64,000 nucleotides of DNA from Candidatus Babeliales bacterium (GTDB lineage: Bacteria; Babelota; Babeliae; Babelales; JANWKD01). Location of the stretch: positions 43,968 through 107,967 of the forward strand of contig CAVXJH010000005.1 in NCBI GenBank assembly GCA_963762115.1. The letters are read 5' to 3'. The notes under the pieces were generated by a model. That model made no database searches and was not told where the DNA came from. It saw only the letters and a program-made list of their open reading frames with translations. Shown here piece by piece: positions 6,585 to 58,484 of this stretch. Each line of letters opens with the position of its first letter. The first letter of the stretch is position 1. The position numbers and the translations under genes are program-made.

Positions 6585-6998
6585 TTAACTAATAATACAA
6601 CGTTTTTTTTTAGATTTTTTATGCATTACCGCAATAGAAACATCTGCAATAACTTTACCACCTCGATCATAGATCTTGCCATCACGCAAATAACGAGTAG
6701 GACGACTTCTTTGCAAAAAATCATATAATTGAGTGAAATCATTTTCATAAAAACTACCATCGTCAAAATACGTTATAGCTTTATGCGTGGTGCCATCAAA
6801 TTTTCCGCGTAATTTTCCATCTTCATTAACGTAGACCGTCACTTTTCTTTGTTCGCTTGCCTTATTCATACGGTCAACACAAATAGTTTTATCAGAACGC
6901 CATTGCTTACATAATCTTTCACGCATGTCGTCCATGCCAAACATTGAACCTACACTGAAAAAAATCACTATAAAAAAGAAATTTTTATAGCTCTTCAT
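6585..6998 (-). CDS. small leader-bearing protein with polybasic + CaaX C-terminus (KKSKKKRCIIS)
   Basis: GGGAG Shine-Dalgarno before the ATG. The leader MKSYKNFFFIVIFFSVGSMFG|MDD carries the junction motif. The last 11 codons read KKSKKKR-CIIS-stop. Confidence 0.6.
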   Translation of the reverse strand: MKSYKNFFFIVIFFSVGSMFGMDDMRERLCKQWRSDKTICVDRMNKASEQRKVTVYVNEDGKLRGKFDGTTHKAITYFDDGSFYENDFTQLYDFLQRSRPTRYLRDGKIYDRGGKVIADVSIAVMHKKSKKKRCIIS

Positions 6999-7054
6999 AG
7001 CATAACTCCCAAAAAAATAATGGTTTTTATTGTTCCATTCATACTAAAAAGATT

Positions 7055-7609
7055 TCAATTCAAAATACAACAACATTTTCTTTTTCTTTTTCTCAACAAG
7101 GCCATATCTTCTGAGTCTTGCAACATCGCTGTCACACTTCCAACATTTTTGCTCAACTGCTCGTATTTTGCCAACCTCACTTCATCCGAATCGCGCTGCC
7201 CAAGTCTTTTGCCATTTTCTACAGGCATATATTTTCCTCCACACAAAGTGCCAATATTGTGTTCTTCATCTTTGCTCTCTAATCTAAGCTTAAATGCTTC
7301 ATATGCAAGCTTTAACTGTCCTTCTGGAAATTGCATTACCACTCTTTTTTTTTGTATATCAAATTTTGCTATTAATTCCCCAGCACGCTTCACCTTAATC
7401 GTACCATCGACATATTCCTGTTGTTCTAAAATCTCTAATGCCTGTTTTTCTAAACCCCGCCAATGTTCAAAAAAAAGCGCATCATCAACATCAACGTTAC
7501 TTAAAAACATTTTCTTTTTTTCTTCTTTTTCCATGCCATACAAAGAGACAAAAATAAATGCATAGAACACACCATTACCAATCACAAAATAATTTTTAAT
7601 CTTCATCAT
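7055..7609 (-). CDS. small leader-bearing protein with polybasic + Cys-cluster/CaaX C-terminus (RKRKRKCCCILN)
   Basis: AAGGAGA Shine-Dalgarno upstream. Leader ...FYAFIFVSLYG|MEKEE. The C-terminus reads RKRKRK-CC-CILN-stop. Confidence 0.6.
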   Translation of the reverse strand: MMKIKNYFVIGNGVFYAFIFVSLYGMEKEEKKKMFLSNVDVDDALFFEHWRGLEKQALEILEQQEYVDGTIKVKRAGELIAKFDIQKKRVVMQFPEGQLKLAYEAFKLRLESKDEEHNIGTLCGGKYMPVENGKRLGQRDSDEVRLAKYEQLSKNVGSVTAMLQDSEDMALLRKRKRKCCCILN

Positions 7610-7618
7610 TTCTCCTTA

Positions 7619-8074
7619 TTACCAACAAGAAAAACAACAGCAACATTTTTTATGTTCCTTTTCTTCTTTATCAATAAAATGATCATTTTCTGTTGCATTG
7701 GAACCATCATCAATTTCATCTTCATCAATGGGCAAAGGTTCCTGCAATAATTCTTTGAACTTTTCATAAGGGTAAACACGTTCAATTCTTTTTTTTTCGT
7801 TTTTTGGATCAGGAATTTTAACTGATGCTTGTTGCCACAAACCATTAAAACTACCCACCGTTAGCTCTTCCTTATTATGCAAACTAACTGAATTTTTTGA
7901 AAGTAATGACTGTGCCATATATTCAGCAGCCTTTTCTTTTTTAGGAATCCATATTCTTTTAACCGCATCATCACATGCTTTTTGATAGGCATCAAAGTCA
8001 TTCTCCATTGCATATGAAAAAGTAATTAAGCACATGAAGGCAAAAAAATAGATTATCTTTTTTTGTTTTTTCAT
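7619..8074 (-). CDS. small leader-bearing protein with Cys-cluster C-terminus (KKCCCCFSCW)
   Basis: Leader MKKQKKIIYFFAFMCLITFSYA|MEND. The C-terminus reads EHKK-CCCCFSCW-stop. It is the third gene of a same-strand trio. Confidence 0.55.
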   Translation of the reverse strand: MKKQKKIIYFFAFMCLITFSYAMENDFDAYQKACDDAVKRIWIPKKEKAAEYMAQSLLSKNSVSLHNKEELTVGSFNGLWQQASVKIPDPKNEKKRIERVYPYEKFKELLQEPLPIDEDEIDDGSNATENDHFIDKEEKEHKKCCCCFSCW

Positions 8075-8264: not shown

Positions 8265-9331
8265 TTAAGAAACGATAATATACCAACCATGCTGAAGGAG
8301 CGCTTTCACGCGCAAAAATTCTTGCTTAAATTCATTATCGAGATGCGATAACCGAACATAAACATCATCACGTAAAATCCAAGGATCAATACCACGACTT
8401 TTAGAAGGCAACCACATATCATAGTGTGTTTCATCTCCCAATGTCACTTTGAACGTATTTTTTAATCGATGCAATAAAAACTGTATAGTTTTATCTGATG
8501 AATTTGAAAGAATATGCCATACATCTTCATCACAAGAAAAATGAATAACATGATCAGAAAGAAGACCTATTGATAAGCCATATTTTAACAGTTCTCCGGT
8601 ATAACGATTAATTAAAAGATCATATGCTGAACCAAAATGAAATTCTGTTAAATGCAAGGGAATCATCGCCAATTTTTTTGCCAGAGCTACATCGGTGAAA
8701 AACCAACGACCATGCGCAAAATGCAAATCAGCAACAATAGTTGAAATCTCTTCAGGTTGTAGTAAAAGATCAATCACCGCACCAAACATGTTATAATCTA
8801 AACGATCTGCACAAAGTTCCGGCAAATCTTGCTCTAAAGCCGTAAATTCAGCATTCTTGTGTAAAATATCGGTGATTAAAATGCCATGTTTTTTTAAAAT
8901 TTCAGGAATTTCCGTTTGCTGCAAAAACCATTCATGAATATCATCTTGATAAGAACCAGTCAATGAATGATGATTATACACAATCTCACCAGTATGCGAA
9001 AAAACCGTATGAGAAACATCATGCAGCAACCCTGCTATTTGTTCCAATAATGATGCATTTACCTTACGCAATAAGCATAAAACACCGATTGAATGATCAT
9101 AACGAGTAAAACGTTTTTTGGTGCCAACAAAAAATCTGCACCATATTGATTGATTTTTCTTAATCGTTGCACAGAATGAGATGATAGGAGATCCAATAGA
9201 ACTGGTTCTGTTATGACAAAGGTGCCATAGATGGTGCAAAGAACCTGTGATGGCTGATAACAACGCTTGTCATCAACAGAATGCGCTTGATAAGAAACTG
9301 AATTTAAATCTATTTTTTTTGGTATAAACAT
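8265..9331 (-). pseudogene. HD-domain phosphohydrolase (COG1078-like), interrupted by a 1-nt frameshift
   Basis: The N-terminal piece (9331..9059; ...SVQRLRKINQYGADF) and the C-terminal piece (frame of 9263..8265; FVGTKKRFTRYDHSIGV...LLHDVSHTVFSH) together form a single HD protein. One extra T (A on the + strand) in the A6 run at 9129..9134 would join them. Confidence 0.7.
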
Positions 9332-9409
9332 TATATCTTGTTTTTTCCTTCATTTTGCAAATATTTTTATTAAAAGTAAACAATTTTAATTACATAGGGA
9401 GTTTGATCA

Positions 9410-10064
9410 ATGAAATTATTTTTAGACACGGCACATCTTGATGACATACGAGCCTGGGCATACATGATTGATGGTGTCACCACCAACCCCTCACATCTTG
9501 CAAAAGAAAATAATGATCCCAAAAAACAAGTATTAGAAATTTGTTCTGTTATGCATAACAAAGATGTCAGCGTTGAAATCACCTACACAGAACCAACGGC
9601 AGTCTATCAACAGGCACTAGCCCTTTCAAAACTTGCACCTAACATTGTTGTTAAAGTTCCTTGTCATCACGATTATTATCCGGTGATTGCACAATTAGTG
9701 CGCGATGGCGTCAAAATCAATGTCACTTTAGTGTTCACCCTTGTGCAATCACTCTTTATGTGCAAATTCAGGAGTTAGGTATATTTCTCCTTTCATTGGC
9801 AGATGGGATGATATTGATATTGATGGCACCAATCTTTTATTTGAAATTCGCAGCATGATTGATCAATATAATTATAACACACAAATTCTTGCTGCTTCAA
9901 TTCGACACATTCGTCACTTACATGAAACAATTCTTGCTGGCGCTGATGTTGCAACAATACCAGCATCAGTTCTTGAAAAATCATCCAATCATATTTTAAC
10001 AAAAGAAGGAATGGAACAATTCAACGCCGATTGGAATAAACTTGGCCATCCATCTTTCCCTTAA
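9410..10064 (+). pseudogene. tal: transaldolase / fructose-6-phosphate aldolase (short Tal/Fsa type), interrupted by a 1-nt frameshift
   Basis: MKLFLDTAHLDDIR...GVTTNPS...VVKVP...INVTLVFTLVQSL, then the frame changes to (L)CANSGVRYISPFIGRWDDI...ILAASIRH...FNADWNKL. Removing one T at CTCTTTATG (9755..9757) restores a colinear Tal. The pattern matches short bacterial transaldolases as I recall them. Confidence 0.8.
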
Positions 10065-10070
10065 ACCATT

Positions 10071-11260
10071 ATGAACAAAAAAATAGTATCAATATTATTT
10101 GTAACCAATAACTATACTCCTTATTCTGGTGGCGTTGTAAGTTCTATTTTTTTACATACAACAGCATTACGCAAACAAGGTCATACCGTCACTATTGCCA
10201 CACTCGATTTTTTAAATACGCACCACCAACAACAAGAGGAGCATGTCATACGTCTTTATTGTCCTATTCGCTGGATTATGAATACAAATCATATGGCAAT
10301 CCCGTGGCAAGCAACCAAACAACTGGAACATCTTATAGCAACATTACAACCCACCATTATTCATGTTCACCATCCATTTTTACTCGGCACTGCTGCAAGC
10401 CGTGTCGCTCGCAAAAAAGAATACCTCTTGTGTTCACCTATCACACTCTTTATGAACAATATGTACATTACATACCCTATATTCCTCACCTCATTTCCAA
10501 ACAAATGGTTACTCACCTAGTAAAAAAATTCTGTAACAACGTTGATGGTATCATCGCTCCAAGCAGCATTGTTGAAGAACAATTACAACAGTCACAGATT
10601 AAAACTAAAACAGCGCGGATACCCAGTGGCGTTGCAGAGCACTTTTTTTCTGCCATGCCGCGCTTGCCAAAACAACCATCAACAAAAATACAACTGCTCA
10701 GCGTCAGTCGATTTGCAAAAGAAAAAAATATTACTTTTTTACTCGATGTTGTTGCCGCTCTTAACCCAACACAATTCAACACAACGTTTATTGGCTACGG
10801 TCCAGAAAAAAATAATTTAGAACGGTATGCCTTTCATCACAAAAAAATTTCTCCTCAAGCAGTTCAATTTATCGAAAGACCATCAAAAGAAATACTCTTA
10901 CATGCTTATTATGCCGCCGATATTTTTATCTTTGCTTCAAAAAGTGAAACGCAAGGAATTGTTTTGGCCGAAGCTATGTCACAAGGAACACCTGTTGTTG
11001 CTGTGCATGGTCCTGGCCAACGTGATCTGATCGAACAAGGGAAAAATGGCTTTTTAGTGCACACTCAACAAGACATGCAAACGGTTCTTGAATATATACA
11101 CGCAAATCCCACGCTGCTTGCCTCATTACAGCACAATGCTTTTGCAACAGCACAGAACTTTAAACCGGAAATAGTTACGCAGAAATTAATCGACTTTTAT
11201 TATGACGTTATTAATCATTATTCTACGAGCCCAAAAAGAAATTTTGAACTTATCTATTAG
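10071..11260 (+). pseudogene. GT4-family glycosyltransferase (diacylglycerol glycosyltransferase-like), interrupted by a 1-nt frameshift
   Basis: N-terminal piece: ILFVTNNYTPYSGGV...IIHVHHPFLLGTAASRVARKK. C-terminal piece in another frame: RIPLVFTYHTLYEQYVHYIP...ASKSETQGIVLAEAMSQGTPVVA. An A7 in place of the A6 at 10413..10418 would fuse them. Confidence 0.75.
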
Positions 11261-11332
11261 CATTAAATGAGAAAAATGATAGTATAAAACAGATAATAAT
11301 TAATTTTATGTTCATAATTTCGAGGTGTAACA

Positions 11333-11674: not shown

Positions 11675-13607
11675 AAAAAAATCTTATGCTGATATTCACA
11701 ATATTCAACAGGGCAAAACAACTAAAAGTATTCTCTGTAGGCCTTTTGCTGAAGATCAATCAATATATAAACGAGGCAACGTTACAACGTCTGACAACTC
11801 TCCACAAAAGAATTCTCCTGAAAAGACAGCATCTTGTCATGATACTGCGCAAGAAACTGATGAACAAGAAAATGGCAAAGAAAAAGAACAATTTCATAAT
11901 CTTCAATCTGAACCAATTGACATGACGGCTTCGATATTCATTTATCCAATAGAAGTACAAAATGAACCTATAACTGAAATTGTACGAGAATTACCTGAAA
12001 AAAAACTTACCAACGATGAAGCAATGCCTTTTTTATTAACAAACATTACAACGCCTGAAAATTCCCCATTAAATGCTTATCCTGAAAACCTAACCAGCTA
12101 TTGTGTTGCACGAGATAATGACTCACCAGAAAAAGGTAAAAGAAAACTTACTGACGATACAATAAATCATTCATCAAAGGATGGTGAAAAAGAAACAGAA
12201 GAAAAAAATAATGATAATGAAATTAAGTCATATGAAGATTTCTCTTTATGCATAGAAGATTCTTTACAGCCAGATGAACAATTAAGCGCATTATGGCCAG
12301 ATGAACAAGTAAGCGCATTAGAAAACACTAGCCCCTGTGGAATAATTGCTGCACAAGAAATTCGTAGCCGCAAAAAATTAGATGTATTAAATATGCATGA
12401 AAACCCTCAAGCATCTTATCAAAACTACTTAGCAACAATACTATTAGGTAAATCTAATACCTTTAAACTTTCAGATTTGTATGAACAAATCAGCCAAAGG
12501 GATCAAAAAGACACTTCAGATATTAATGACCATGACAAAGAAGAATGGGTTACTCTAAGCAACCTACCAAATCCTAAATTTAAAGAATATGAGTGGAAAC
12601 CAAAAATAATTAATACTGACAAGAAAGAAAATGGCATTATCATTTTTTTTCTTATTCATGGAACCTTTAATGATTCAACTGAATATTGTAAAGATAAAGA
12701 TGCAAAAATGAGCAAGGATTTAATTAATTTCAGCAGCATGCTTGCTGATACAAATGATTGCGCAGTCAAAATTATTCCTTTTCAATGGTCCGGAGAATTA
12801 AGTGTTGAAACTAGAGAAGAGGCCGCTTCAGTGCTACAACGTTATTTTCTCAGTGATGAAGACTGCATGAATGCACATAAAACAATAGCTTTTAGTCATA
12901 GCTATGGCGGTGATGTTCTTTTACAATTTGCAAACTTACTCAAACCTCATAATAAAACATTAGATTTAGCTGTTATGGCCGCAACACCATCGGGTGAAGG
13001 GACTAAGAAAGAAACAGTTAAAAAACATGCAAGAATATTAGAATATACCGACCCTGAAGAGTGCTTCAATATTAAAAACATTATTCAATGTTTTTCGCGA
13101 GGTGATGTAACGCAAGCTTTAGGATCTCGGCATATGACCGTGGGTATATTTAATCCTCTTGGGACCGCTGAAAGAAGATTGCCTTTTCGCATAAGCAAAG
13201 ACAGAAATGTCGTAAATTGCCATTTTGAGCATAATGGAGAACTTTGTTCACACGTAAGCATCAAATGGCATGCTGCTGCATCAATGCATCTTTTTCTTCC
13301 TATGCTCCAAAACCTTTATCCTCATGCGCATGATCTGAATATTTCCACCTGTGATGATAACAGGTTACACTTACCAATTATAACCCTCAGAAATAATATT
13401 TTCTCACCTGGCTGTGAAACAACAAACCGTCGTTCATTTCAAGCAAGCATCCTTGGAGAAGAAATGTTTGAAAAACTCTACGAAAGATCGATAGGAACTT
13501 ATAATACATTGACATTATTTAAATTATTTAAAGAAGGAACGGACGCAGGATATGATCCCAAAAATCAAGGCCGTGAAGACTTAGCTAAACTATTTGAAAA
13601 AAACTAA
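11625..13607 (+). CDS. alpha/beta-fold serine esterase/lipase-like protein with long acidic low-complexity N-terminal region
   Basis: The C-terminal half has an oxyanion-type FFLIHGTFNDS and a nucleophile elbow AFSHSYGGD. The track start at 11625 is a TTG, and the first in-frame ATG is about 100 codons downstream. Confidence 0.55.
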   Translation: MHQLKKQSDSAQLESVKKKSYADIHNIQQGKTTKSILCRPFAEDQSIYKRGNVTTSDNSPQKNSPEKTASCHDTAQETDEQENGKEKEQFHNLQSEPIDMTASIFIYPIEVQNEPITEIVRELPEKKLTNDEAMPFLLTNITTPENSPLNAYPENLTSYCVARDNDSPEKGKRKLTDDTINHSSKDGEKETEEKNNDNEIKSYEDFSLCIEDSLQPDEQLSALWPDEQVSALENTSPCGIIAAQEIRSRKKLDVLNMHENPQASYQNYLATILLGKSNTFKLSDLYEQISQRDQKDTSDINDHDKEEWVTLSNLPNPKFKEYEWKPKIINTDKKENGIIIFFLIHGTFNDSTEYCKDKDAKMSKDLINFSSMLADTNDCAVKIIPFQWSGELSVETREEAASVLQRYFLSDEDCMNAHKTIAFSHSYGGDVLLQFANLLKPHNKTLDLAVMAATPSGEGTKKETVKKHARILEYTDPEECFNIKNIIQCFSRGDVTQALGSRHMTVGIFNPLGTAERRLPFRISKDRNVVNCHFEHNGELCSHVSIKWHAAASMHLFLPMLQNLYPHAHDLNISTCDDNRLHLPIITLRNNIFSPGCETTNRRSFQASILGEEMFEKLYERSIGTYNTLTLFKLFKEGTDAGYDPKNQGREDLAKLFEKN

Positions 13608-13610
13608 AGA

Positions 13611-13640
13611 GTTGGGCCGTAGAATATTCTACGGCCCAAC
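13611..13640. terminator. perfect 30-nt palindrome, bidirectional terminator candidate
   Basis: GTTGGGCCGTAGAAT|ATTCTACGGCCCAAC sits between the convergent stops at 13607 (+) and 13661 (-). It is flanked by A/T runs. Confidence 0.7.
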
Positions 13641-13660
13641 ATTAAAAAATCTCGTTTATG

Positions 13661-14422
13661 TTACTCTTGTGGAATACCATCCAAGTGGATTTGTATTTTT
13701 TGAATCTGATTTTCTAAATCTTGAATTTGATCAGCGCTAGCAGTGCCACTCGCTTCTAAATCTGCTAATTGCGCACTTAAATCATCTAATCGTGTCGTTA
13801 ACATGTCATAAATTTCATCCCAATTTCCATCTTGTTGCAACACAACTAATGAATCATCAAATCCTAAACCATAACCATAGTAAGGATAATAACCACCCCA
13901 ATATTGATTAATAGCAAGGGCTGATAATATTCCTAAGCCAAGCCACAAGCCACCAAAGCCCCAGCCCCAGCCGCCTCCCCAGCCACCGCCACGGAATGCA
14001 CCATGACGACCTGCAATACCACGACCGCCATGACGTCCACGACCTGCACCGCCACGTCCACGACCTGCATGTCTACCAGCACCGCCACGCCCACGAGCTC
14101 CAGCCCTAGTTCCTGCTCTACCTCTAGCGCCTGTTCTTGTACCCGCTCTTCGAGTTCCTGTCGCTCTTGTTCCCGCTCTTCGAGTTCCTGCTGCTCTAGT
14201 TCCAGCTCTTCGGGTTCCTGCGGCTCTTGTACCTGCACGGCGAGTTCCTGCTGCTCTAGTTCCACCAGCGCGACGGGCACCACCAGCTCTCATGCCACCG
14301 CCACGCATGCCACCACCACGCATGCCACCTCCGCGTCCGCCGCCGCCGCCACCACCACCTCTTCCATCAAGCTGTGGAATCACCAACAGCACCATAAGAA
14401 TCGATAAAACTATTTTTTTCAT
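13661..14422 (-). CDS. secreted Gly/Arg-repeat (RGG/GAR-like) protein with Gly-aromatic segment and acidic coiled-coil tail
   Basis: Signal-like MKKIVLSILMVLLVIPQLDG. This is followed by RGGGGGGGGRGGGMRGGGMRGGGM, then 5 x RRAGTRAAGT-type units, then GWGGGWGWGFGG, YYPYYGYGLGF and an acidic helical end. Confidence 0.7.
   Translation of the reverse strand: MKKIVLSILMVLLVIPQLDGRGGGGGGGGRGGGMRGGGMRGGGMRAGGARRAGGTRAAGTRRAGTRAAGTRRAGTRAAGTRRAGTRATGTRRAGTRTGARGRAGTRAGARGRGGAGRHAGRGRGGAGRGRHGGRGIAGRHGAFRGGGWGGGWGWGFGGLWLGLGILSALAINQYWGGYYPYYGYGLGFDDSLVVLQQDGNWDEIYDMLTTRLDDLSAQLADLEASGTASADQIQDLENQIQKIQIHLDGIPQE
14123..14275 (-). repeat. about five tandem 30-nt coding repeats (RRAGTRAAGT units) in a GC-rich island
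   Basis: The + strand shows the unit CGAGTTCCTG(Y)(Y)GCTCT(W)GT(W)CC(C/A)GCTCTT repeated. It lies inside CDS 13661..14422. Confidence 0.75.
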
Positions 14423-14585
14423 ACTATTCCCCTTTATCGTTAAAAAATAACAACACTTATATTTTAATTTTTTTATAGTATAAAAATCAACAATTCATTT
14501 CAAGATGTAATTAAATCGCCACACTTTGCCTCGTATAATACTAGAAATTTCAAAGAAGTATTTATTATTATGAAATAAAAAAAGG

Positions 14586-14939
14586 ATGACTCTCATGAAA
14601 AATCTGTTATTCATATTCATAAGCTGCTTACTGTTTACTATTCGCCTTAAAACAATGTCAGACAGAATTGAATTCATAACACCGTCATATAATGACTGCC
14701 ATGAGAAACATTATATGCAATACAATTCAAAAGAATTCATTGATCTATTACTGTCATTACAAAAGCCATGCAATGAATCTAAAGAAAGTGCCAGATTAGG
14801 GGTTTTAGTAGATCGTTATATTGAATACCAAATAATCAAACTAGACATTGAGCATCAACTTGCAACCCTACAAGCCGAACGACATATTCTTTCAATCCGA
14901 GAACGATTTAAACGATATCAAACCAAGCAAAACCTCTAA
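14586..14939 (+). CDS. hypothetical small protein with N-terminal hydrophobic segment
   Basis: 117-aa ORF, MKNLLFIFISCLLFTI leader. No family recognised. Confidence 0.35.
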   Translation: MTLMKNLLFIFISCLLFTIRLKTMSDRIEFITPSYNDCHEKHYMQYNSKEFIDLLLSLQKPCNESKESARLGVLVDRYIEYQIIKLDIEHQLATLQAERHILSIRERFKRYQTKQNL

Positions 14940-17959: not shown

Positions 17960-18484
17960 ATGAAAAAAACACAGATTTTTTTGTTGAGTCTATCATTTTT
18001 CTTACTGTCATCAGCAATGGAAGAAAAACCTGGCTCAAAAAAACCAAAAAAAATTAGCTTTGCGATTGAACCAAAAAAGAAAATTCTCACAAAAGAAGAG
18101 CGATTTTCCAGAGAGATGCTCGCACTTAACGCTAAACAAGCGCAAAGAAAAATTAAAGAATGCACCAAATATGCAAAACGAGCCGTAAAACAAGCACAAA
18201 AAACCAAAGACAGGACAACAAAAACAGAAAAACTTGATTCAGCTGAAGATTTTTATTGCCAAACCGCTCTCATCTATTTAACTATTTTTGCCTCTGATAT
18301 GCAAAATATGGATGCTTTTGATAAAGCACAAAACATAATGGAAAAAGATGTCTATTCAATAGGAGTAAAACGGCAAGAATATAATATTAGTTTTTACGTA
18401 CATCCAAATCTGGAATTCACCTGGAAAAAATTCCGCGAAGCAGAAGACAATTTGCGCATTCAACAAAAAAGAAAAATTTGCTAA
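17960..18484 (+). CDS. leader-bearing lysine-rich protein
   Basis: Leader MKKTQIFLLSLSFFLLSSA|MEEKPGSKKPKK. Basic and helical. Ends KRKIC. Confidence 0.5.
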   Translation: MKKTQIFLLSLSFFLLSSAMEEKPGSKKPKKISFAIEPKKKILTKEERFSREMLALNAKQAQRKIKECTKYAKRAVKQAQKTKDRTTKTEKLDSAEDFYCQTALIYLTIFASDMQNMDAFDKAQNIMEKDVYSIGVKRQEYNISFYVHPNLEFTWKKFREAEDNLRIQQKRKIC

Positions 18485-18508: not shown

Positions 18509-20575
18509 ATGAAAAAGAAATTAATAGTACTCATAGGTTTTATGAGTATATTTTCAGGATGTTTAGAACAACAAAAAACAAAACATCCAAATTCTATTGA
18601 ATCAATAAACGATATAATCAATTATTTTCCAACAACAAGCGATGAAATTAAACAAATTGCAGCTGATGCACAAACAAAAACACAAAATTTAATTTCAACC
18701 CTACTTACTACACCTCCAGGACAAGAATCATTCGAAACAATTTTTGGTGTTTTTGATAAAGCCATTGCCGCCATGACACGGGCAATTAGTCTCTTTGAAG
18801 TTATTTCCCTGACTAATCCTCATGAATCTTTACGTACTGCAGCGCAAGAAGAAAGTGTGCGATTACAGGGAATTTTTATTGATTTAATAAGTCAAAATAA
18901 AAATCTTTATAACAAATTATCATCATATGCAGATACCAGTGCAAACCATGAAACATTAAGTGATGCTCAAAAATATTTTATTAAAGAAACACTTGAGTCA
19001 TATCAACGAGATGGTATAAATTTACCCGAGGAAAAAAGAGATCAAGTGGCAAAAGTTAAAAAAGAACTTGCCGATCTTACCACCCTTTTTGATAAAAACG
19101 TCAATGATGATGCAAGCACAATTGAAGTTCCCCTTGAAGGATTAAAAGGGCTTAGTGAAGAATTTATAACAAATCTCAAAAAAAACTCTGAAGGATTATA
19201 TATTCTGGGTGTTGACTATCCCACCTATCAACAAGTAATAAAACAAGCTGAAGATCAGCAAACACGAAAAAAAATTCTTGAAGCATTTAATAATCGTGCA
19301 TACCCGGCCAATATAAAAGTATTAGATGCAATTATTGTTAAAAGAAATGAGCTTGCTCAACTTTTAAACTTCCCAAGCTTCTCTCATCTCAATATGGCAA
19401 GCGAGATGGCAAAAACACCTGAAAAAGTTGAATCATTTCTAGAAGAATTATTAGAAAAATCACTCAAGAAAACATCAAAAGAATTTGCTGAATTAACAAA
19501 AGAGTTACCACCTTCTGTAAACTTGAACCCTGATGGCACCATGAATGCATGGGATATTCAATTTGTTGCTACGTGGTATACCAAAAAGAATTATGACCTA
19601 GATCCTTATAAAGTTGCTGAATATTTTCCTATGGAAAAAACCATTGAAGGTCTTTTCAATATTTACCAACAATTTTTTGGTCTTCGCTTTCAAGAACTGC
19701 CCTTAACAGGCCTTTGGGATAAAGAATTAAAACTCCTTGCAGTTTATAAAAACGAAACCTTGCTTGGTTATCTTATTCTTGATTTATACCCTCGTGATAA
19801 CAAACGCGCAGGTGCTTTTAACGCTACTATTATCCCAACGTTACGCACCAAAGATGGCAACATTACCCCTGCACTCAGTCTTGTTGTAGCAAATTTACCA
19901 AAATCAACGGCAACTAAACCATCACTCCTTTTGCGCAGCGATGTAAGCACTTTTTTCCATGAATTTGGGCATGCTCTTCATGCATTACTTGGCGCAACTG
20001 AATTAGAATCACAATCAGGCACCAATGTTAAAACAGATTTTGTTGAGCTACCATCTCAAATGCTCGAAGAATGGTTATTTGATAAAGATATTCTTTCTAA
20101 TCTGAGTAGTCATTATGTAACGGGAGAAAAATTATCACCCGATACTCTTGATAAAATTCTTATTTTAAAAAATCTTTCCAATGGAAAATGGATAACCACA
20201 CAAATACTCTATTCTTTTTTTGCCCTCAAATTATTTGGTCCTGGCACAGAAAAAGATTCACAAAAAATACTGCAAGAATTACAACAAAAACTTGATAAAC
20301 ATATCTTCAGCGGACCCAATGATCATATGCAAGCTGCATTTCACCATTTAACAGGTTATGGAGCACGATATTATAGTTATGTATGGTCAAAAGTATTTGC
20401 GCTTGATATTTTTAATGAAATAAAAAAAGCTGGATTACTTAATCCTGAAATTGGTAAAAAATATAGTGATACTATTTTGAGTAAAGGAGGCAGCAAAGAT
20501 CCTGAACTTTTATTAATTGACTTCTTAGGACGAAAACCAAATTCAGAAGCTTTTTTTAAAGATCTTGGCTTATAA
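18509..20575 (+). CDS. M3-family zinc oligopeptidase (thimet/oligopeptidase A-like), probable lipoprotein, copy 1
   Basis: FFHEFGHALH (HExxH) plus downstream FVELPSQMLEEW. N-terminal MKKKLIVLIGFMSIFSGC is lipobox-like. GAGGAG Shine-Dalgarno upstream. Confidence 0.9.
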   Translation: MKKKLIVLIGFMSIFSGCLEQQKTKHPNSIESINDIINYFPTTSDEIKQIAADAQTKTQNLISTLLTTPPGQESFETIFGVFDKAIAAMTRAISLFEVISLTNPHESLRTAAQEESVRLQGIFIDLISQNKNLYNKLSSYADTSANHETLSDAQKYFIKETLESYQRDGINLPEEKRDQVAKVKKELADLTTLFDKNVNDDASTIEVPLEGLKGLSEEFITNLKKNSEGLYILGVDYPTYQQVIKQAEDQQTRKKILEAFNNRAYPANIKVLDAIIVKRNELAQLLNFPSFSHLNMASEMAKTPEKVESFLEELLEKSLKKTSKEFAELTKELPPSVNLNPDGTMNAWDIQFVATWYTKKNYDLDPYKVAEYFPMEKTIEGLFNIYQQFFGLRFQELPLTGLWDKELKLLAVYKNETLLGYLILDLYPRDNKRAGAFNATIIPTLRTKDGNITPALSLVVANLPKSTATKPSLLLRSDVSTFFHEFGHALHALLGATELESQSGTNVKTDFVELPSQMLEEWLFDKDILSNLSSHYVTGEKLSPDTLDKILILKNLSNGKWITTQILYSFFALKLFGPGTEKDSQKILQELQQKLDKHIFSGPNDHMQAAFHHLTGYGARYYSYVWSKVFALDIFNEIKKAGLLNPEIGKKYSDTILSKGGSKDPELLLIDFLGRKPNSEAFFKDLGL

Positions 20576-20592
20576 TTAATGAAAGAAAAATC

Positions 20593-22662
20593 ATGAAAAA
20601 AAGGCTCATAGTAATAGTATCTTTAATTATCATTTTTCCCTGTTGTTTAGAAATAGAATCTTCTAAAGCATTACCTGATGTGGTTAAATCGGTTCATGAT
20701 GTTGTTGCCTATTTTCCAACAACGAGTCAAGAAATAAGAAACATATCAAATACCACCCAAAAAGAAGTTGAAGAATTAATTTCCACTATAATCAACACTA
20801 CCCCAAAAGAATATTCATTTAAAACAACTTTTGGTGTTTTAGATAAAGCTTTCGCTCTTATGTCGCGCACAATCAGTCTTTTTGAAATTATTTTTAAACT
20901 TAATCCTGATGAAGTTTTACGCAAAATTGCCGAAGATGAAGCCGTGCGATTACAACAACTATTTGTTGATTTAATAGGCCAAAATAAAAATCTTTATAAC
21001 ACCTTATCGGCATATGCAAATACAACATCAAAAAATGAAGATCTAACTGATTCACAAAAATATTTCATCAAAGAAACCCTTGAAGCATATAGACGTGAGG
21101 GATTAGATTTACCTGACGAAAAGCAGGATTTAGTTAAAAAAATAAAAAAGGAACTTGCAGATCTCTCGTCACTTTTTGATAAAAATATTAATGATGACAT
21201 AAGAACAATTAAAGTTTCTCGCGAAGCACTCAAAGGCATTGATGAAGATTTTATTAACGAACTAAAAAAAACGTCTGAAGGTCTCTATATATTAAATATT
21301 GATGAGCCGACTTATTATATCATAATGAAACAAGGTGAAGATGCTCAAACTCGAAAGAAGCTCTTTGAAGCAGTTTTAAGTCTTGCATTTCCTGCAAATA
21401 TGCACGTTTTAGAAGAGATTATTGCCAAGAGAAATGAACTTGCTCAACTCTTGCATTTTCCAAGCTTTGCTCATTTAGATATCGCGGGCCAAATGGCAAA
21501 AACACCAGAAACCGTTGAAGCATTTTTAAAAGGATTGTTAGAAAAATCAGCAAAAAAAGCTTCTTTAGAATTTGCTGATTTAACAAAGGAATTACCACCC
21601 TCAGTAGTGTTAACCCCTGAAGGCAAATTACAACCGTGGGATCGCCAATTTCTAGATAATTGGTATATCAAAAAGCATTATGATATTGATCCCTTTAAAA
21701 TTGCTGAATATTTTCCCATGGAAAAAACTATTGAAGGGCTTTTTGATATCTACCAACAATTTTTTGATCTTCATTTTGAACAAGTTCCACTCACAGGCTT
21801 ATGGGATAAAGAATTGAAACTTCTTGAAGTATATAAAGATACTCTATTCTTAGGTTATATTATTCTGGATTTACATCCTCGCGATAATAAACGAAAAAAT
21901 GCTTTTAATACAACATTAATTCCAGCATTGCGAACGCATGATCGGAAGATCAATCCTGCACTTACTCTCGTTAATGCAAATTTTCCTAAAGCTACTGCTA
22001 CAAAACCTTCATTGTTATTACGAATAGATGTAAGTACCTTTTTTCATGAGTTTGGTCATGCTTTGCACGCCTTACTTGGTGCAACAGAATTAGAATCGCA
22101 ATCAGGCACCAATGTTAAAACAGATTTTGTTGAGTTACCCTCGCAAATGCTAGAAGAATGGTTGTTTGATAAAGATATTCTACATAATTTAAGTAGTCAT
22201 TATAAAACGGACGAAAAATTATCGACTGATGTCATTAATACAATAATTTCTTTAAAAAAACTTAATTCTGGCAAATCAACCATTGATCAACTCATTTATT
22301 CATATCTTGCTCTCCGTTATTTTGGTTCTGAAAAACAAAAAGACACGCAAGACATTCTCAAAAATTTACAAGAAACAATTGATGTTCACACACAATATGA
22401 TCCCAATGATCATTTCCAAACTTCGTTCAATCACTTAACCGGCTATGGTGCAAAATATTACAGTTATTTATGGTCACAAGTATTTGCGCTTGATCTCTTT
22501 AATGAAATTAAAAAACAGGGCTTACTCAACCCTATCATTGGCAAAAAATATAGTGATACTATTTTGAGTAAAGGAGGCAGCAAAGATCCTGAACTGCTCT
22601 TAATTGACTTCTTGGGAAGAAAACCAAACTCTGATGCATTCTTTAAAGATCTTGGCTTATAG
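20593..22662 (+). CDS. M3-family zinc oligopeptidase, copy 2
   Basis: Colinear paralog of copy 1 with an identical active-site block. N-terminal MKKRLIVIVSLIIIFPCC. Confidence 0.9.
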   Translation: MKKRLIVIVSLIIIFPCCLEIESSKALPDVVKSVHDVVAYFPTTSQEIRNISNTTQKEVEELISTIINTTPKEYSFKTTFGVLDKAFALMSRTISLFEIIFKLNPDEVLRKIAEDEAVRLQQLFVDLIGQNKNLYNTLSAYANTTSKNEDLTDSQKYFIKETLEAYRREGLDLPDEKQDLVKKIKKELADLSSLFDKNINDDIRTIKVSREALKGIDEDFINELKKTSEGLYILNIDEPTYYIIMKQGEDAQTRKKLFEAVLSLAFPANMHVLEEIIAKRNELAQLLHFPSFAHLDIAGQMAKTPETVEAFLKGLLEKSAKKASLEFADLTKELPPSVVLTPEGKLQPWDRQFLDNWYIKKHYDIDPFKIAEYFPMEKTIEGLFDIYQQFFDLHFEQVPLTGLWDKELKLLEVYKDTLFLGYIILDLHPRDNKRKNAFNTTLIPALRTHDRKINPALTLVNANFPKATATKPSLLLRIDVSTFFHEFGHALHALLGATELESQSGTNVKTDFVELPSQMLEEWLFDKDILHNLSSHYKTDEKLSTDVINTIISLKKLNSGKSTIDQLIYSYLALRYFGSEKQKDTQDILKNLQETIDVHTQYDPNDHFQTSFNHLTGYGAKYYSYLWSQVFALDLFNEIKKQGLLNPIIGKKYSDTILSKGGSKDPELLLIDFLGRKPNSDAFFKDLGL

Positions 22663-22684
22663 TAGATGAAAACGTAGACTAATA

Positions 22685-24772: not shown

Positions 24773-24791
24773 AAAAAGAATATAAAAGCAG

Positions 24792-24846: not shown

Positions 24847-25212
24847 CTACCATTGTTCTTCTTGAATAACATCATACAATTCTGGATCTTCATCTTCATT
24901 GTAATAGTAGCCACCATCATACAATTCATCAGCCGCAAGACCCAAACCTAAACCAAGGCCTAATCCAGCACCATAACCATAACCATAGCCACGGCCGCCT
25001 CTTCTTCCATAGTAATTTCGATTACCAAAGTTTCGACCACCACCGCGATTCATACCGCCACTACGCATGCCACCACCACGCATACCGCCACCTCGGCTCA
25101 TACCACCACCACGCATACCGCCTCCGCCGCCACCACGACTTTCAAGCGAAGAAACAACACCCACCATCATTATTAAAAACACAAAAATCGCCTTCAAATA
25201 CCTATTATTCAT
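24847..25212 (-). CDS. secreted Gly/Arg-repeat (RGG-like) protein, short paralog-like form
   Basis: Signal-like MNNRYLKAIFVFLIMMVGVVSSLES, then RGGGGGGMRGGGMSRGGGMRGGGMRSGGMNRGGG, then GYGYGYGAGLGLGLGLGL and an acidic Tyr-rich tail. Confidence 0.65.
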   Translation of the reverse strand: MNNRYLKAIFVFLIMMVGVVSSLESRGGGGGGMRGGGMSRGGGMRGGGMRSGGMNRGGGRNFGNRNYYGRRGGRGYGYGYGAGLGLGLGLGLAADELYDGGYYYNEDEDPELYDVIQEEQW

Positions 25213-55820: not shown

Positions 55821-56344
55821 AAAAAAACTCGCTCATTAAAAGTTTATACAATAAAAATAATGCAAGACAATATGTATATTTTATATACTATATTTCTTAT
55901 TGCAAACTATTGATTGCTTTAAAAATATCTTTAGTAAGGTATTTTGCTTCTCCAAAATACCTTAACTAAAAGGAGCCCAATGTTCCCTTGGATTCCCTTC
56001 CCGCGCGAATATGCACCACTCCATTATTGATGCCTTCAGCATCAAAATTCCAGGTACATGTCGCACTACCGGACTAACTTATTTATAAATTTTTTATTGC
56101 GTGACATCTATAAATATTCCCTGGGAGCTCAACCGTTGAAGGATCTGCAGCATATCATTTTAGATATGCGAGGATCGGCCTTTTGGGCGACGGGGAGATC
56201 AATAAGAGGCACAGCCTCTTATTTGCCCTTGTATCAAAGGTATTGGGCAAACAATACTTTTGTGCCTGGCCCGCATAGGGCCGTTTAATAAAAGTTATTT
56301 TACTTTTATAATATTATTTTATGCCTAACCGGCATAAGACCATT

Positions 56345-57502
56345 TTATTTTTTTGGCAAAGCCATTAAAATTAAAGCACCAAAAATACTCAGAAGAGCAC
56401 CATAGAAAAATCCACAAAATGGTGAACAAAAGACCCACAAACAACCAACAGCAGTACTCGAAAAAAAATCTCCAATGCCAGCAACGGCACCTAATAATCC
56501 ATAACCAGTTCCACGATTGTTTGGCGATAAAAAATCAGCTGCCAGCGCACTTTCCAATGAATCGGTGATTGCAGCAGAAATGCCCATTAAAGAAAATAAA
56601 AGGCCCAAATACCACACACTACTTATTTCGAACATGAGTCCCAATGAAACACAAGCAAATAAAAAATAACCAATCACAAGCATTATTTTTTTACCAATCT
56701 TATCAGCAAGGAATCCTAACGGGAATGAACATAAAGAACAAAAAATAGTATAAAAAGTGTATAAAAAAATTGCTAAACTATTTGCTAACACCGTTCCGCT
56801 CATGGGCGTTAAGAGTTGCATCGTACGAAATACTAATAATGATGGTGCAAAATTACCAAGACCAAAAATGCCAACGGCAAACATAAAAAGAAAAAAATCT
56901 TTTGGCAATTGATGTATATTTTCTAAAATCAATGTTTTTTTTGGATCACATGGTATATCGCTAACAAAAAAAACGATAACAACAAGAGCAAGAACACTCA
57001 GCAAGCATGCTGTTAAAAACACCAATGAAAAAGTATAACGAACAATAAGGTAACTGGCACATAAAGGTCCTGCAATTGCACCAAACATGGTGATCGCACG
57101 ATAAAAACCAAATACAGCTCCGTATGCAAATGGTTTTGTGGAACTTGCTAGTAAGGCATCACGAGCAGGACCACGTATGCCTCTGCCAAACCATGCAAAA
57201 ATCAACTGATACCAATTAAAAAAAAAGATAAATGACCCTAAGCCAAGGGCAGTAAAAAAATAGCCAACGGTAAGAAATATTTTTCGCTTACCCGTATAAT
57301 CGCTTAACCAACCAGCAAAAATTTTAATAAAACTAATCAATGAATCAATTATGCCTTCAATTAAACCTAATAACGCTGCTGAAGCACCTAACGATGCTAA
57401 AAATGCCGGAAATATTGCCAATGCCATAAAATGACCAAATTCTGAAAAAAAACTGGCGAGCGCAAGCATAAGAGTATTTTTATTTAACCATGATTTATCC
57501 AT
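56345..57502 (-). CDS. MFS-type transporter
   Basis: 385 aa with about 12 TM helices. MFS-like loop motifs GWLSDYTGKRK and GFLADKIGKK. Confidence 0.75.
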   Translation of the reverse strand: MDKSWLNKNTLMLALASFFSEFGHFMALAIFPAFLASLGASAALLGLIEGIIDSLISFIKIFAGWLSDYTGKRKIFLTVGYFFTALGLGSFIFFFNWYQLIFAWFGRGIRGPARDALLASSTKPFAYGAVFGFYRAITMFGAIAGPLCASYLIVRYTFSLVFLTACLLSVLALVVIVFFVSDIPCDPKKTLILENIHQLPKDFFLFMFAVGIFGLGNFAPSLLVFRTMQLLTPMSGTVLANSLAIFLYTFYTIFCSLCSFPLGFLADKIGKKIMLVIGYFLFACVSLGLMFEISSVWYLGLLFSLMGISAAITDSLESALAADFLSPNNRGTGYGLLGAVAGIGDFFSSTAVGCLWVFCSPFCGFFYGALLSIFGALILMALPKK

Positions 57503-57641
57503 TCCATTCCCCCTTATTATTGTTACTTTTTTTTAAGCTTACCTCATGTAAAAACCAACAAAATAGATTTTTGTAGTATTTTGGAAAAAAAAGTTAGTAT
57601 CGTAATCAATAATGCACAGATAACAAAAGGGTGATCCGCAC

Positions 57642-58484
57642 ATGTCAAAATTCTTACTTGTTTTAACGCTATTTTTCTCATGCACTACTACAAAGACTAT
57701 GGAAGAAGATGAAATAACCAGCGAACATAAAGAAACAATAGTTGAACATGAACTATTAGCGACCCGCATGGCTAACTTTGTTGAGAATATTTATAATCTG
57801 CGCGACACGATCGTGGCAAGACCCTTGCGCGTGGAAGATTTTATTTATGCACAGAACAATGCTGAATGGAGCGACCTGCGAGAGCTCAACAAAAAAGTGA
57901 AAAAAAGATGCTCATGCAAAATGCCAAAATTACTCAGAAAATATCAAGAACAAACAAAAGTACAAATCGACTTATTCAAACGAGGCGTTTCATTATTAGA
58001 TAATGAAGAATTCAGAACCACCATACAAGACAAAATTACAAAAAAACCAGTGCAAACTTTTTTCATTGAAAAAGTTTGTCGACAAAAAAAAATGACTCCA
58101 ACCAAATGGTTAGGATTACGAACAATTGCTTTAAGTAGCCTACGAGAAAAACTCAAAGAAAAAACCACAAAAGAACAAATCTTCAGTTGTGTTGATCAAG
58201 CACCGCCCTATGTTAGCGGTTTGGGATGCGGCGTTGGCCTCATGGCACTTTTCACCCCTTTATGGCCTTATGGCGCCACTATTATTGGCGTTAGTTCTTG
58301 TATTTGTTTGACATGCCAACATGAGATATACGATACTTGCAAGTCTCATTCTCTCTATTGCAGCAATCATGATATTGATAATAAATTGCAAAGAACCATA
58401 CAGCTCTTACAATTTAATGAAGAAAAAATACAGCCCAATACATCAGGTAAAAACATCGAAAAAGAACACTTGCTACAAAATTAA
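57642..58484 (+). CDS. leader-bearing protein with C-terminal Gly/Cys-rich membrane segment
   Basis: Shine-Dalgarno-like AAGGGTGA. Leader MSKFLLVLTLFFSCTTTKT|MEEDE. Later YVSGLGCGVGLMALFTPLWPYGATIIGVSSCICL. Confidence 0.5.
   Translation: MSKFLLVLTLFFSCTTTKTMEEDEITSEHKETIVEHELLATRMANFVENIYNLRDTIVARPLRVEDFIYAQNNAEWSDLRELNKKVKKRCSCKMPKLLRKYQEQTKVQIDLFKRGVSLLDNEEFRTTIQDKITKKPVQTFFIEKVCRQKKMTPTKWLGLRTIALSSLREKLKEKTTKEQIFSCVDQAPPYVSGLGCGVGLMALFTPLWPYGATIIGVSSCICLTCQHEIYDTCKSHSLYCSNHDIDNKLQRTIQLLQFNEEKIQPNTSGKNIEKEHLLQN

Follow-up and report, generated by a model that had tools for sequence, protein, structure and literature searches.

Roughly one third of the secretion leaders in a Candidatus Babeliales bacterium (Dependentiae/TM6) are predicted to be cut so as to leave Met followed by an acidic residue at the new N-terminus, and as read from sequence this junction appears to mark host-directed, eukaryote-like cargo, not housekeeping exported enzymes. 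We favour the explanation, at a probability of about 0.4, that cleavage leaves a Met-acidic N-terminus which would both suit Sec export and be stable in the host cytosol. The bacterium, of the phylum Dependentiae, is uncultured and is an intracellular parasite of protists. No description of a Met-acidic leader junction was found in the literature searched.

Met at the leader junction

The window, that is the whole 64,000-nucleotide stretch analysed here, holds 57 open reading frames, about 33-35 of them leader-bearing; twelve leaders have Met at +1 (binomial p ~1e-11 at a Met frequency of 2.5%), although these proteins are non-independent, four being one paralog family and three one gene cluster, so that they represent about 7-9 independent families. 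The observation proves stronger than first claimed. All twelve leader|Met-Glu/Asp/Gln junctions listed in the earlier note are borne by open reading frames at the coordinates given there, each with the basic n-region, hydrophobic stretch and junction described, and there is a thirteenth, looser case.

The earlier note proposed checking for enrichment in relatives, and Met at +1 is indeed enriched 17.4-fold in the window's clade and 5.4-fold in 45 other Dependentiae loci, but not in about 25 outgroup loci (0.7-fold, a small sample of 73-74 leaders). An anchor-free count, which assumes no cleavage rule, gives the same picture: the first D/E beyond the hydrophobic core has Met directly before it in 26% of window leaders, in 7% of those from the 45 other Dependentiae loci and in none of the 73 outgroup leaders. 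An artefact of open frames in T-rich 5' DNA was ruled out, as an open leader-like peptide lies ahead of ATG-[D/E/N/Q] in 1.1% of cases in non-coding frames and 42% of cases in frame at N-termini. The Met-acidic junction is a phylum-wide lineage trait of the Dependentiae, which the earlier note missed; it is patchy within the phylum and absent from a 22 kb Vermiphilus sample.

Among small|X-[D/E] junctions Met is the most common +1 residue (34/90). Where small|Met precedes it, the +2 residue is Glu or Asp in 35% of cases; the figure is 6% for other candidate sites and 7% for native second positions. The +2 residue of the small|Met class is mainly E/D/Q/N, in agreement with the NatB-type class proposed for it. 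The word invariant holds for the twelve window junctions but not outside them, where relatives carry M-T, M-A, M-H, M-S or M-K, and C or S at -1; ankyrin proteins with FC|MAGG in L079 are such exceptions to an acidic or amide +2.

Sec-type leaders and the translation start

The junction leaders are Sec-type signal peptides whose translation begins at the upstream start. They end in an ordinary signal peptidase I site (-3 L/V/S, -2 aromatic or His, -1 A/G/S/T/C). In every sequence feature compared they agree with class I signal peptides, sharing the basic n-region, uncharged hydrophobic core, small residues at -1 and -3, length of ~22 residues and acidic early mature region. Cleavage would expose Met and then Glu/Asp/Gln/Asn, and Met at +1 alone is the unusual feature: although rare as a rule in class I signal peptides, it leads all other +1 residues among the small|X-[D/E] junctions and is confined to one cargo class. 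In c-region and leader length the Met class differs little from non-Met leaders, which argues that the same peptidase serves both classes and against a second dedicated protease as the second recognition step suggested earlier.

That the leader is translated, as the earlier note argued, is borne out by a mean hydropathy of 1.51 over the 18 codons before Met in frame, against 0.10 and 0.03 in the other two frames, and by the placing of Shine-Dalgarno-like motifs at upstream starts and not at the inner Met. Such motifs precede 48 of 64 outer starts and 3 of 64 junction ATGs among the small|Met-class proteins (any-ATG baseline 9%); in the window the counts are 7/12 and 0/13. Because public gene calls often take the inner Met as the start, the leader goes unseen in them, a point the earlier note missed.

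The same data bear on dual initiation, in which one protein would be made in two forms, exported from the outer start and cytoplasmic from the junction ATG. The in-frame ATG is invariably there, automated gene callers frequently pick it, and Met before E/D/Q/N would stay untrimmed, so both isoforms would have an identical mature sequence. We nevertheless consider this highly improbable. Besides carrying Shine-Dalgarno-like motifs at less than the baseline rate, junction ATGs lie in mRNA as structured as that at ordinary internal ATGs (local minimum free energy -15.0 and -13.5 kcal/mol, respectively), whereas outer starts are open (-9.3 kcal/mol), and GTG/TTG, the codons of ~11% of real starts, are not over-represented at the junction. 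It is also hard to see what a bacterium would gain from keeping a host-directed ankyrin or CaaX protein in its own cytoplasm when the T2SS is the sole secretion system detected, as is the case in Dependentiae (PMC4378268, PMC6561590, PMC4776705).

Junction genes in the window

On the minus strand, 6585..6998 encodes 137 residues with the junction MFG|MDD (leader 6936..6998, junction ATG 6933..6935) and a polybasic CaaX tail, KKKRCIIS, at the C-terminus; GGAG lies 7 nt upstream of its outer ATG, and its orthologs in L004/L005 read ...KSMS|MQQ. The 184-residue product of 7055..7609 (minus; LYG|MEK, leader 7535..7609, junction ATG 7532..7534) ends in RKCCCILN and has AAGGAG upstream of its outer start, with orthologs reading LNA|MEE in L004 and DVC|MEE in L003. 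That of 7619..8074 (minus, 151 residues; SYA|MEN, leader 8009..8074, junction ATG 8006..8008) has a Cys-rich tail, CCCCFSCW, that is no strict CaaX, and its L004 ortholog shows NLFC|MHEEE after an uncalled leader. The thirteenth case, 14586..14939 (plus, 117 residues; leader 14586..14654, junction ATG 14655..14657), reads LKT|MSD; its L004 ortholog reads ITA|MKKRDK, and there the public gene call begins at the inner Met.

A basic protein of 174 residues (17960..18484, plus; SSA|MEE, leader 17960..18016, junction ATG 18017..18019) gave no match in a Pfam search. The Gly/Ala-rich membrane protein of 32311..32928 (minus, 205 residues; ASG|MET, leader 32863..32928, junction ATG 32860..32862) starts at GTG with AAGGGGG upstream. 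For 35385..35930 (minus, up to 181 residues; TFA|MQE, leader end 35826, junction ATG 35823..35825) the functional start is probably an internal ATG (MKMVFF...), not the upstream GTG. The 255-residue orphan of 47977..48744 (plus; LAA|MEE, leader 47977..48039, junction ATG 48040..48042) matched only itself in a search of 5.8 billion proteins. The 280-residue protein of 57642..58484 (plus; TKT|MEE, leader 57642..57698, junction ATG 57699..57701) begins at the inner Met in its public copy, P0013, and relatives at 33-37% identity retain ACG|MEME and TLC|MEKE.

The four paralogs, all on the minus strand, lie at 50422..51858 (478 residues; LMA|MEQ, leader 51799..51858, junction ATG 51796..51798), 51956..53281 (441 residues; SHA|MEK, leader 53216..53281, junction ATG 53213..53215), 53308..54621 (437 residues; VYG|MEQ, leader 54544..54621, junction ATG 54541..54543) and 54633..55820 (395 residues; MHG|MEE, leader 55755..55820, junction ATG 55752..55754). 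Their earlier assignment as Skp1-like/LRR proteins stands, with moderate support. The Skp1-like domain begins within a few residues of the junction, which itself falls at the position of Skp1's own Met; in the first paralog about 40 additional residues separate the two.

Cargo behind the junction

The junction had been described as marking a subset of exported proteins, namely eukaryote-mimicking cargo, and the wider sample agrees: ankyrin repeats occur in 10 of 64 Met-class proteins against 1 of 110 other leader-bearing proteins, and WD40 in 3 of the 64. Met-class carriers include ankyrin, WD40 and Skp1-like/LRR proteins, proteins with Cys-rich prenylation-type tails, and orphans; non-Met leaders are found on peptidases, thioredoxins, BamA and secretin. 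The M3 peptidase, GH1, the HAD paralogs and 44604..45182 were confirmed to lack the junction. Prenylation-type tails require host cytosolic enzymes for CaaX processing.

Conservation and the cassette edge

Met-Glu is kept in paralogs and orthologs that are 26-42% identical, while the leader, the -1 residue and the length of the downstream linker (6 to ~45 residues) change around it, which argues for selection on Met-Glu. In diverged pairs, which are mutually non-independent, the partner is also small|Met in 27 of 45, whereas ordinary Met residues are retained at 23%.

The junction Met also closes, at its 3' end, a promoter-SD-leader cassette reused before unrelated cargo genes; in L020, L032 and L080 the breakpoint falls 0-7 nt past the junction ATG. 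This shared edge escaped the earlier note. Phytoplasma sequence-variable mosaic proteins and Borrelia upstream homology box families likewise combine a conserved 5' module of upstream DNA and leader with unrelated or hypervariable mature regions. Their module is not known to end in Met-acidic, however, and the window junction proteins gave no Pfam match, signal families of these types included.

Such an edge would be expected if the junction were a relic without present function, cargo genes, some from eukaryotes, having been captured behind promoter-leader cassettes with their own start codon not yet lost. The alignment of Skp1's initiator Met with the junction, and the occurrence of the motif on young, lineage-private genes, also fit. 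We hold this to be distinctly unlikely, given that Met-Glu survives in homologs whose leaders have diverged beyond recognition and that the +2 spectrum is dominated by E/D where native second residues are mostly K, S and I. The lack of a GTG/TTG excess speaks against it too, as does the search for leaderless relatives starting at the junction Met, in which all seeming examples proved to have a leader, upstream of that Met, that had gone uncalled.

Sorting or stability

The main rival to a host-stable N-terminus is a post-Sec sorting tag, the cleaved Met-acidic N-terminus being recognised in the periplasm by T2SS components, an outer-membrane vesicle loading step or another factor, which would part effectors for expulsion from resident periplasmic and outer-membrane proteins. 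We rate it as somewhat unlikely, though the Met enrichment, conservation and cargo partition apply to it equally, and Met-Glu is part of a conserved cassette, fixed at the leader end while the linker varies. Dependentiae effectors bear Sec leaders (PMC4378268, PMC6561590, PMC4776705). Roughly half the proteins encoded by these genomes bear leaders (44% in Chromulinavorax, PMC6561590), and with the T2SS alone (PMC4378268) the cell needs some means of sorting. On the other side, hydrolases thought to be secreted (M3 and C11 peptidases, GH1) lack the tag, the motif is two residues only with no conserved extension, and no candidate receptor was identified. We also know of no linear N-terminal T2SS signal.

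A sorting tag would resemble the lipoprotein +2 rule and the Bacteroidetes lipoprotein export signal, in which, in diderm bacteria, residues adjoining the cleavage site, often acidic, determine where a Sec-exported protein ends up. Those systems use a lipidated Cys at +1 and signal peptidase II, whereas the junction proteins have neither lipobox nor Cys at +1. It would also recall the Plasmodium PEXEL element (RxLxE/Q/D), a short element by a processing site that marks a host-targeted subset of secretory proteins and leaves x-E/Q/D, the same +2 chemistry as the junction. PEXEL, however, is eukaryotic and lies downstream of an ER signal, where plasmepsin V cleaves it after Leu, P3 being Arg; at the junction the cut would be the signal peptidase site itself, with A/G/S at P1 and specifically Met at +1.

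Under the favoured explanation, a host-stable N-terminus, Met probably first marked the point where cassette and cargo meet, perhaps as the cargo's own start codon, and selection would then keep it because an unformylated Met followed by an acidic or amide residue serves three needs together: no positive charge follows the cleavage site during Sec export, host methionine aminopeptidase would leave Met in place, and the N-terminus would not be destabilising in eukaryotic N-degron pathways. The effector would leave the bacterium via the T2SS or outer-membrane vesicles and then survive in the host cytosol, the junction ATG serving as no second translation start. Stability alone would not explain the choice of Met, since the Arg/N-degron pathway would not treat Ala, Ser, Thr, Gly or Val at +1 as destabilising either. 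To our knowledge, an evolutionary signature of the N-end rule across a genome or a phylum has not been described.

The principle has a precedent in anthrax lethal factor, in which the residue exposed by signal-peptide cleavage sets half-life and potency in the eukaryotic cytosol by the N-end rule, Met being stabilising and the most potent N-terminus tested; listeriolysin O and diphtheria toxin are cited for the same principle (PMC2518864). Unlike the junction, these are single-protein experiments, and the native N-terminus of lethal factor is Ala, not Met. Leaders lacking Met are also found on a few ankyrin proteins from other lineages, and some of these seem to expose Arg or Lys.

Met-acidic junctions in the window and across Dependentiae

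Twelve ORFs of the window (6585..6998, 7055..7609, 7619..8074, 17960..18484, 32311..32928, 35385..35930, 47977..48744, four Skp1-like/LRR paralogs at 50422..55820, and 57642..58484) encode proteins in which a Lys-rich n-region and a hydrophobic stretch are followed by a small residue, then Met, then Glu, Asp or Gln. An earlier note had picked out these twelve by reading the DNA alone, and every one of its ORFs and junctions was confirmed in place. A thirteenth, looser junction that it did not list lies at 14586..14939 (LKT|MSD). The window has 57 plausible ORFs; about 33-35 of them encode a leader, and Met comes next in roughly one leader in three (binomial p ~1e-11, assuming a Met frequency of 2.5%). 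The twelve are not independent and should be read as some 7-9 families, the four Skp1-like proteins being paralogs and the three Cys-tailed ones a single cluster. Leaders without the junction are carried in the window by an M3 peptidase, a GH1 protein and three HAD-type hydrolases, kinds that the note had set apart, and also by an S9-type peptidase and an MscS-family protein.

Enrichment was counted among leader-bearing proteins with [AGSCT]-X-[DENQ] just past the hydrophobic core, comparing X with background. Met was by far the most enriched residue in the window and two close relatives (17.4-fold, 18/54); its enrichment was 5.4-fold (42/378) in 45 other Dependentiae loci and 0.7-fold (1/74) in about 25 outgroup loci (Fisher p for Met enrichment, 3e-7 and 0.005). 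A statistic that needs no cleavage rule looks only at the residue just before the first charge past the core; by this count Met-[D/E] is found in 26% of leaders in the window, 17% of those in close relatives, 7% of those elsewhere in Dependentiae and 0/73 of those in outgroups. At small|X-[D/E] junctions +1 is most often Met (34/90), with Ala at 16/90. The trait is patchy, being present by a looser criterion in about half of the Dependentiae loci and richest in the clade of the window, and it was not found in the 22 kb of Vermiphilus sequence examined. As a pattern in sequence we regard the Met-acidic observation as solid, phylum-wide and apparently undescribed; its function we infer.

Translated leaders of the Sec signal-peptide class

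Because an untranslated T-rich 5' region in AT-rich DNA could mimic a leader, the open frame was tested directly. An open leader-like peptide stands before ATG-[D/E/N/Q] in 1.1% of cases (51/4544) in non-coding frames, a null drawn from 48 Dependentiae sequences, versus 42% (64/152) in frame at the N-termini of called ORFs. Mean hydropathy over the 18 codons before the Met is 1.51 in frame, versus 0.10 and 0.03 in the two other frames. Across the Dependentiae sample we collected 64 proteins with a leader and a small|Met-[D/E/N/Q] junction (the Met class); a Shine-Dalgarno (SD)-like motif precedes 48/64 of their outer starts, where the leader begins, but only 3/64 of their junction ATGs, the baseline for any ATG being 9%. 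Within the window the figures are 7/12 outer starts and 0/13 junction ATGs. The non-coding-frame null, the frame-specific hydropathy and the SD placement together rule out a chance or open-frame artefact of T-rich 5' DNA, and they agree with the earlier argument that SD-like motifs serve the outer starts and that the leader is translated.

Dual initiation, in which the junction ATG would be a second translation start, had also been put forward, and it is disfavoured, failing on three counts. The junction lacks the SD-like motif that outer starts carry; the local mRNA there is no less folded than around ordinary internal ATGs (minimum free energy -15.0 vs -13.5 kcal/mol), while the outer starts are open (-9.3); and the junction shows no surplus of GTG or TTG, codons that serve about 11% of real starts. 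The nucleotides around the junction have a purine at -3 in 13/13 and G at +4 in 11/13 (RNNATGG, e.g., 18014..18022), which fits the eukaryotic Kozak context. This context is most simply a by-product of Ala, Gly and Thr codons at -1 and Glu and Asp codons at +2.

By every testable sequence feature the leaders belong to the Sec/SPase I signal-peptide class, with cleavage and export predicted. The 12 window proteins and the 64 Dependentiae cases have a basic n-region and then an uncharged hydrophobic core of about 10-15 residues. An SPase I site calls for a small or neutral residue at both -1 and -3 and for a +1 residue other than Pro; here -3 is Leu, Val, Ser, Met, Ala or Thr, -2 is aromatic or His, -1 is Ala, Gly, Ser, Thr or Cys, and +1 is Met. 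An anchor-based test without preselection gave Ala 42%, Ser 15%, Thr 12%, Gly 8% and Cys 8% at -1 (also Pro 8% and Val 4%), while the other -1 tallies, from the Met-class profile and the matched comparison, had been preselected as small. The earlier note suggested a second recognition step, and a dedicated protease with extended specificity was considered and rejected: at matched small|X-[D/E] junctions Met-class and non-Met leaders average 21.8 and 22.8 residues, treated as equal, and their c-regions differ only modestly (Leu at -3, 47% vs 23%; aromatic or His at -2, 56% vs 30%; p ~0.02).

Other signal types were also rejected. For lipoprotein (SPase II) signals, the lipobox L-[A/S]-[G/A]-C, whose Cys is the +1 residue, is absent and +1 is Met in 12/12, in contrast to the neighbouring M3 peptidases, which carry ...SGC or ...PCC. 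For Tat signals, the n-regions are Lys-rich and RR occurs in 0/12. In type IV prepilin or pseudopilin signals a short basic leader is removed ahead of the hydrophobic segment, at G|F/M, and Glu stands at +5, whereas the junction follows that segment and has Glu at +2.

Cargo carrying the junction

Dependentiae are obligate intracellular parasites of protists, widespread and almost never cultured. The LeuRS encoded at 4103..6547 assigns the window to Candidatus Babeliales within this phylum (TM6). The window also encodes an ATP/ADP translocase, and the closest genome, MAG OY969622.1 (1.34 Mb), has a LeuRS 86% identical to that of the window.

The claim that the junction marks a eukaryote-like subset of the exported proteins held up. 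Ankyrin repeats occur in 10/64 Met-class proteins and WD40 propellers in 3/64, and PLD is also represented. Among 110 other leader-bearing proteins serving as control, one has ankyrin repeats; that set holds M3, C11, M16 and A4 peptidases, thioredoxins, BamA/POTRA, a secretin, a substrate-binding protein and NamZ. Ankyrin proteins labelled by a strict regex numbered seven, six of them with a small|Met junction.

Several Met-class proteins of the window are lineage-private. Pfam gave no match for the ten of the twelve that were scanned, two of the four Skp1-like paralogs included, and homology searches on three of the twelve matched only the query itself, paralogs or a handful of relatives. For the Skp1-like paralogs (50422..55820) a profile search against the PDB matched InlB-type LRRs (E ~1e-5) and eukaryotic Skp1 (E=9e-4, Skp1 residues 2-50), and an AF2 model of medium confidence (pLDDT 65) gave only weak Foldseek matches (all E>0.03; Skp1 chains at TM ~0.5). 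Over its C-terminal 100 residues each paralog is predicted to fold into a long helical hairpin with many small-xxx-small (Gly-zipper) patterns and then ends in a conserved PGQ...D tail, which suggests membrane insertion, possibly in a host or vacuolar membrane.

Two Cys-tailed proteins have CaaX ends by sequence and are predicted to be prenylated (6585..6998, KKKRCIIS; 7055..7609, RKCCCILN), while 7619..8074 ends CCCCFSCW, Cys-rich though not a strict CaaX; orthologs end CSLN, CCLY and CFLM. Prenylation requires eukaryotic cytosolic enzymes, so the proteins with predicted CaaX tails must act in the host cytosol if the prediction is right. This polybasic, Cys-rich-tail gene cluster lies directly downstream of LeuRS in all three genomes (window 6585..8074; the sampled Dependentiae loci L003, 12424..14039, and L004, 12482..14430). 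Its copy number is 3, 3 and 4, respectively, and it diverges fast (28-46% identity) beside a LeuRS at least 86% identical.

Conservation and modularity of the junction

The junction persists where the surrounding sequence does not. All orthologs of the Cys-tailed genes in relatives have a leader and then Met (NA|MEE, VC|MEE, CA|MDP, MS|MQQ, FC|MHEEE, DA|MTT), even where the public gene call begins at the inner Met. Identity between the four Skp1-like paralogs is 26-42%, their leaders no longer resemble one another and the linker from junction to domain runs from 6 to about 45 residues, with an ME start in all; their orthologs in OY969622.1 read LRA|MEE and LYA|MEQ. Three members of the 57642 family, at 33-37% identity, keep Met-Glu with Thr, Gly or Cys at -1. 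When collinear homologs less than 50% identical are paired, the partner too shows a small|Met junction in 27/45 pairs, versus 23% for retention of an ordinary mature-region Met, a descriptive comparison as the pairs are not independent. Apparent leaderless relatives starting at the junction Met (L003 12955, L004 12482, 13552 and 14017, and P0015) each had an uncalled in-frame leader upstream, and no truly leaderless relative was found among the candidates checked.

In three further Dependentiae loci, L032 (four tandem genes), L080 and L020, DNA similarity begins in the non-coding stretch upstream, runs through SD and leader (at up to about 82-84% identity in L080) and ends 0-7 nt past the junction ATG; the cargo beyond shows no relation or has diverged far more. 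Where non-Met leaders share a 5' region, the similarity breaks off at various other places. The stop at the junction ATG makes Met, or Met-Glu, the 3' edge of a reusable promoter-SD-leader module. Tandem effector-like arrays whose 5' parts are more alike than their mature parts occur at L032 3249..9794 (WD40-type), L080 16169..19471 and L079 2730..16635 (both ankyrin), a pattern that suggests that the 5' module has been copied as a cassette or has undergone gene conversion. In the window three tandem M3 peptidase paralogs occupy 18509..24772; the first two have a lipoprotein-like Cys after the leader (…FSGC, …FPCC), and the second and third share upstream DNA at 85% identity (-142..+10) with different leaders. 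A conserved 5' module with variable cargo resembles the phytoplasma SVM proteins and the Borrelia upstream-homology-box families.

Could the Met simply be a captured start codon that survives as a relic? Such an origin fits both the cassette edge and the Skp1 alignment, but the deep conservation of the junction is at odds with it, as is the +2 spectrum: Glu plus Asp make up 35% after small|Met, versus 6% for other candidate sites and 7% for the second residue of native proteins, where Lys, Ser and Ile prevail.

A proposed protein-level function for the Met-acidic N-terminus

With the relic and dual initiation both fitting poorly, a protein-level function is left. On the reading that we prefer, the junction probably began as the seam where cassette meets cargo, and would have been retained since it supplies a suitable mature N-terminus to effectors in the host cytosol. 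Positive charge just after the cleavage site hinders Sec export, and Lys and Arg would for this reason be excluded at +2; a small +2 residue leads methionine aminopeptidase (MetAP) to trim the Met, and a hydrophobic one yields an unacetylated Met-hydrophobic degron. The permitted set would then be Asp, Glu, Asn and Gln (and His), matching the set observed. Seven of the nine single-nucleotide neighbours of ATG encode Ile, Leu, Lys or Arg, all destabilising at the N-terminus, so a mutational trap would hold Met in place only where a protein meets the eukaryotic N-degron machinery. These steps draw on established knowledge of Sec export, MetAP specificity and N-degron pathways. The stability reading is weakened in that Ala, Ser, Thr, Gly or Val at +1 would stabilise too; exceptions at +2 exist (M-A, M-T, M-S, M-K), as do a few ankyrin proteins without Met in other lineages. 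There is a precedent in anthrax lethal factor, where the residue exposed by signal-peptide cleavage sets potency via the N-end rule and Met is the most potent, and the same principle is reported for listeriolysin O and diphtheria toxin (PMC2518864).

The main rival to protein stability is a post-Sec sorting tag marking which exported proteins are to be expelled. It explains the same data, and the fact that Met-Glu stays with the leader end and belongs to the cassette favours it; presumably secreted hydrolases without the tag speak against it, and we know of no linear T2SS signal. That the SPase-made Met-acidic N-terminus might be a dedicated second-step signal, read by a Dependentiae-specific factor that routes effectors from periplasm to host cytosol, we consider rather unlikely, at perhaps one chance in five.

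As an element at +1/+2 limited to effectors, its functional analogues are the PEXEL-derived xE/Q/D N-terminus of Plasmodium, the lipoprotein +2 rule and the Bacteroidetes lipoprotein export signal, although it has none of their defining sequence features. PEXEL (RxLxE/Q/D) follows an ER signal at a distance of 15-30 residues and has Arg as P3 and Leu as P1, whereas here P3 is Leu, Val or Ser, P1 is Ala, Gly or Ser, and the element coincides with the SPase site; only the new x-E/Q/D N-terminus is common to both.

We know of no effector-delivery signal in Dependentiae other than a generic Sec leader, which about half of their proteins have. A two-residue mark that splits host-directed cargo from housekeeping exported proteins offers a direct route to candidate-effector lists for hundreds of MAGs. 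If the stability reading is true, the junction would be the first case of eukaryotic N-degron rules leaving a genome-wide mark on the evolution of proteins that bacteria secrete; if the sorting reading is true, it would add a linear secretion signal of a new kind to those of diderm bacteria. A second-step signal would be a bacterial counterpart of the PEXEL-derived N-terminus; it would found a new class of linear signals, for effectors that depend on T2SS or vesicles, and provide a sequence rule by which the effectors of an entire uncultured phylum could be recognised. Published genome work reports Sec signal peptides on 44% of Chromulinavorax proteins and on most ankyrin proteins, with T2SS the only secretion system detected (PMC6561590, PMC4378268, PMC4776705); neither these papers nor the wider Dependentiae literature searched mentions Met at the cleavage site.

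Gene calls and other features of the window

Public calls begin at the inner Met and drop the leader in at least seven genes (window 57642..58484; L003 12955..13431; L004 12482..12823, 13552..13923, 14017..14430 and 22024..22308; and L086, another Dependentiae locus, 3001..3966). The public copy of the window 57642..58484 protein, P0013, has 261 aa instead of 280, and one leader was overlooked by gene calling because of its GTG start. Such calls hide leaders, and secretome estimates for Dependentiae are probably undercounts.

Three adjacent conserved genes in window 8265..11260 are each split into two overlapping ORFs, a HD-domain protein (8265..9331), a transaldolase/FSA (9410..10064) and a GT4 glycosyltransferase (10071..11260), all intact in L003 and L004; the splits could be sequencing or assembly frameshifts or recent pseudogenisation. 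Leader proteins consisting for the most part of RGG-box-like Gly/Arg/Met repeats (GGGMRGGGMRGGG) lie on the minus strand of the window at 13661..14422 and 24847..25212, and are kept in relatives (L003 19380..20099, L004 20820..21788) with a classical non-Met junction (…QLDG|RGGG).
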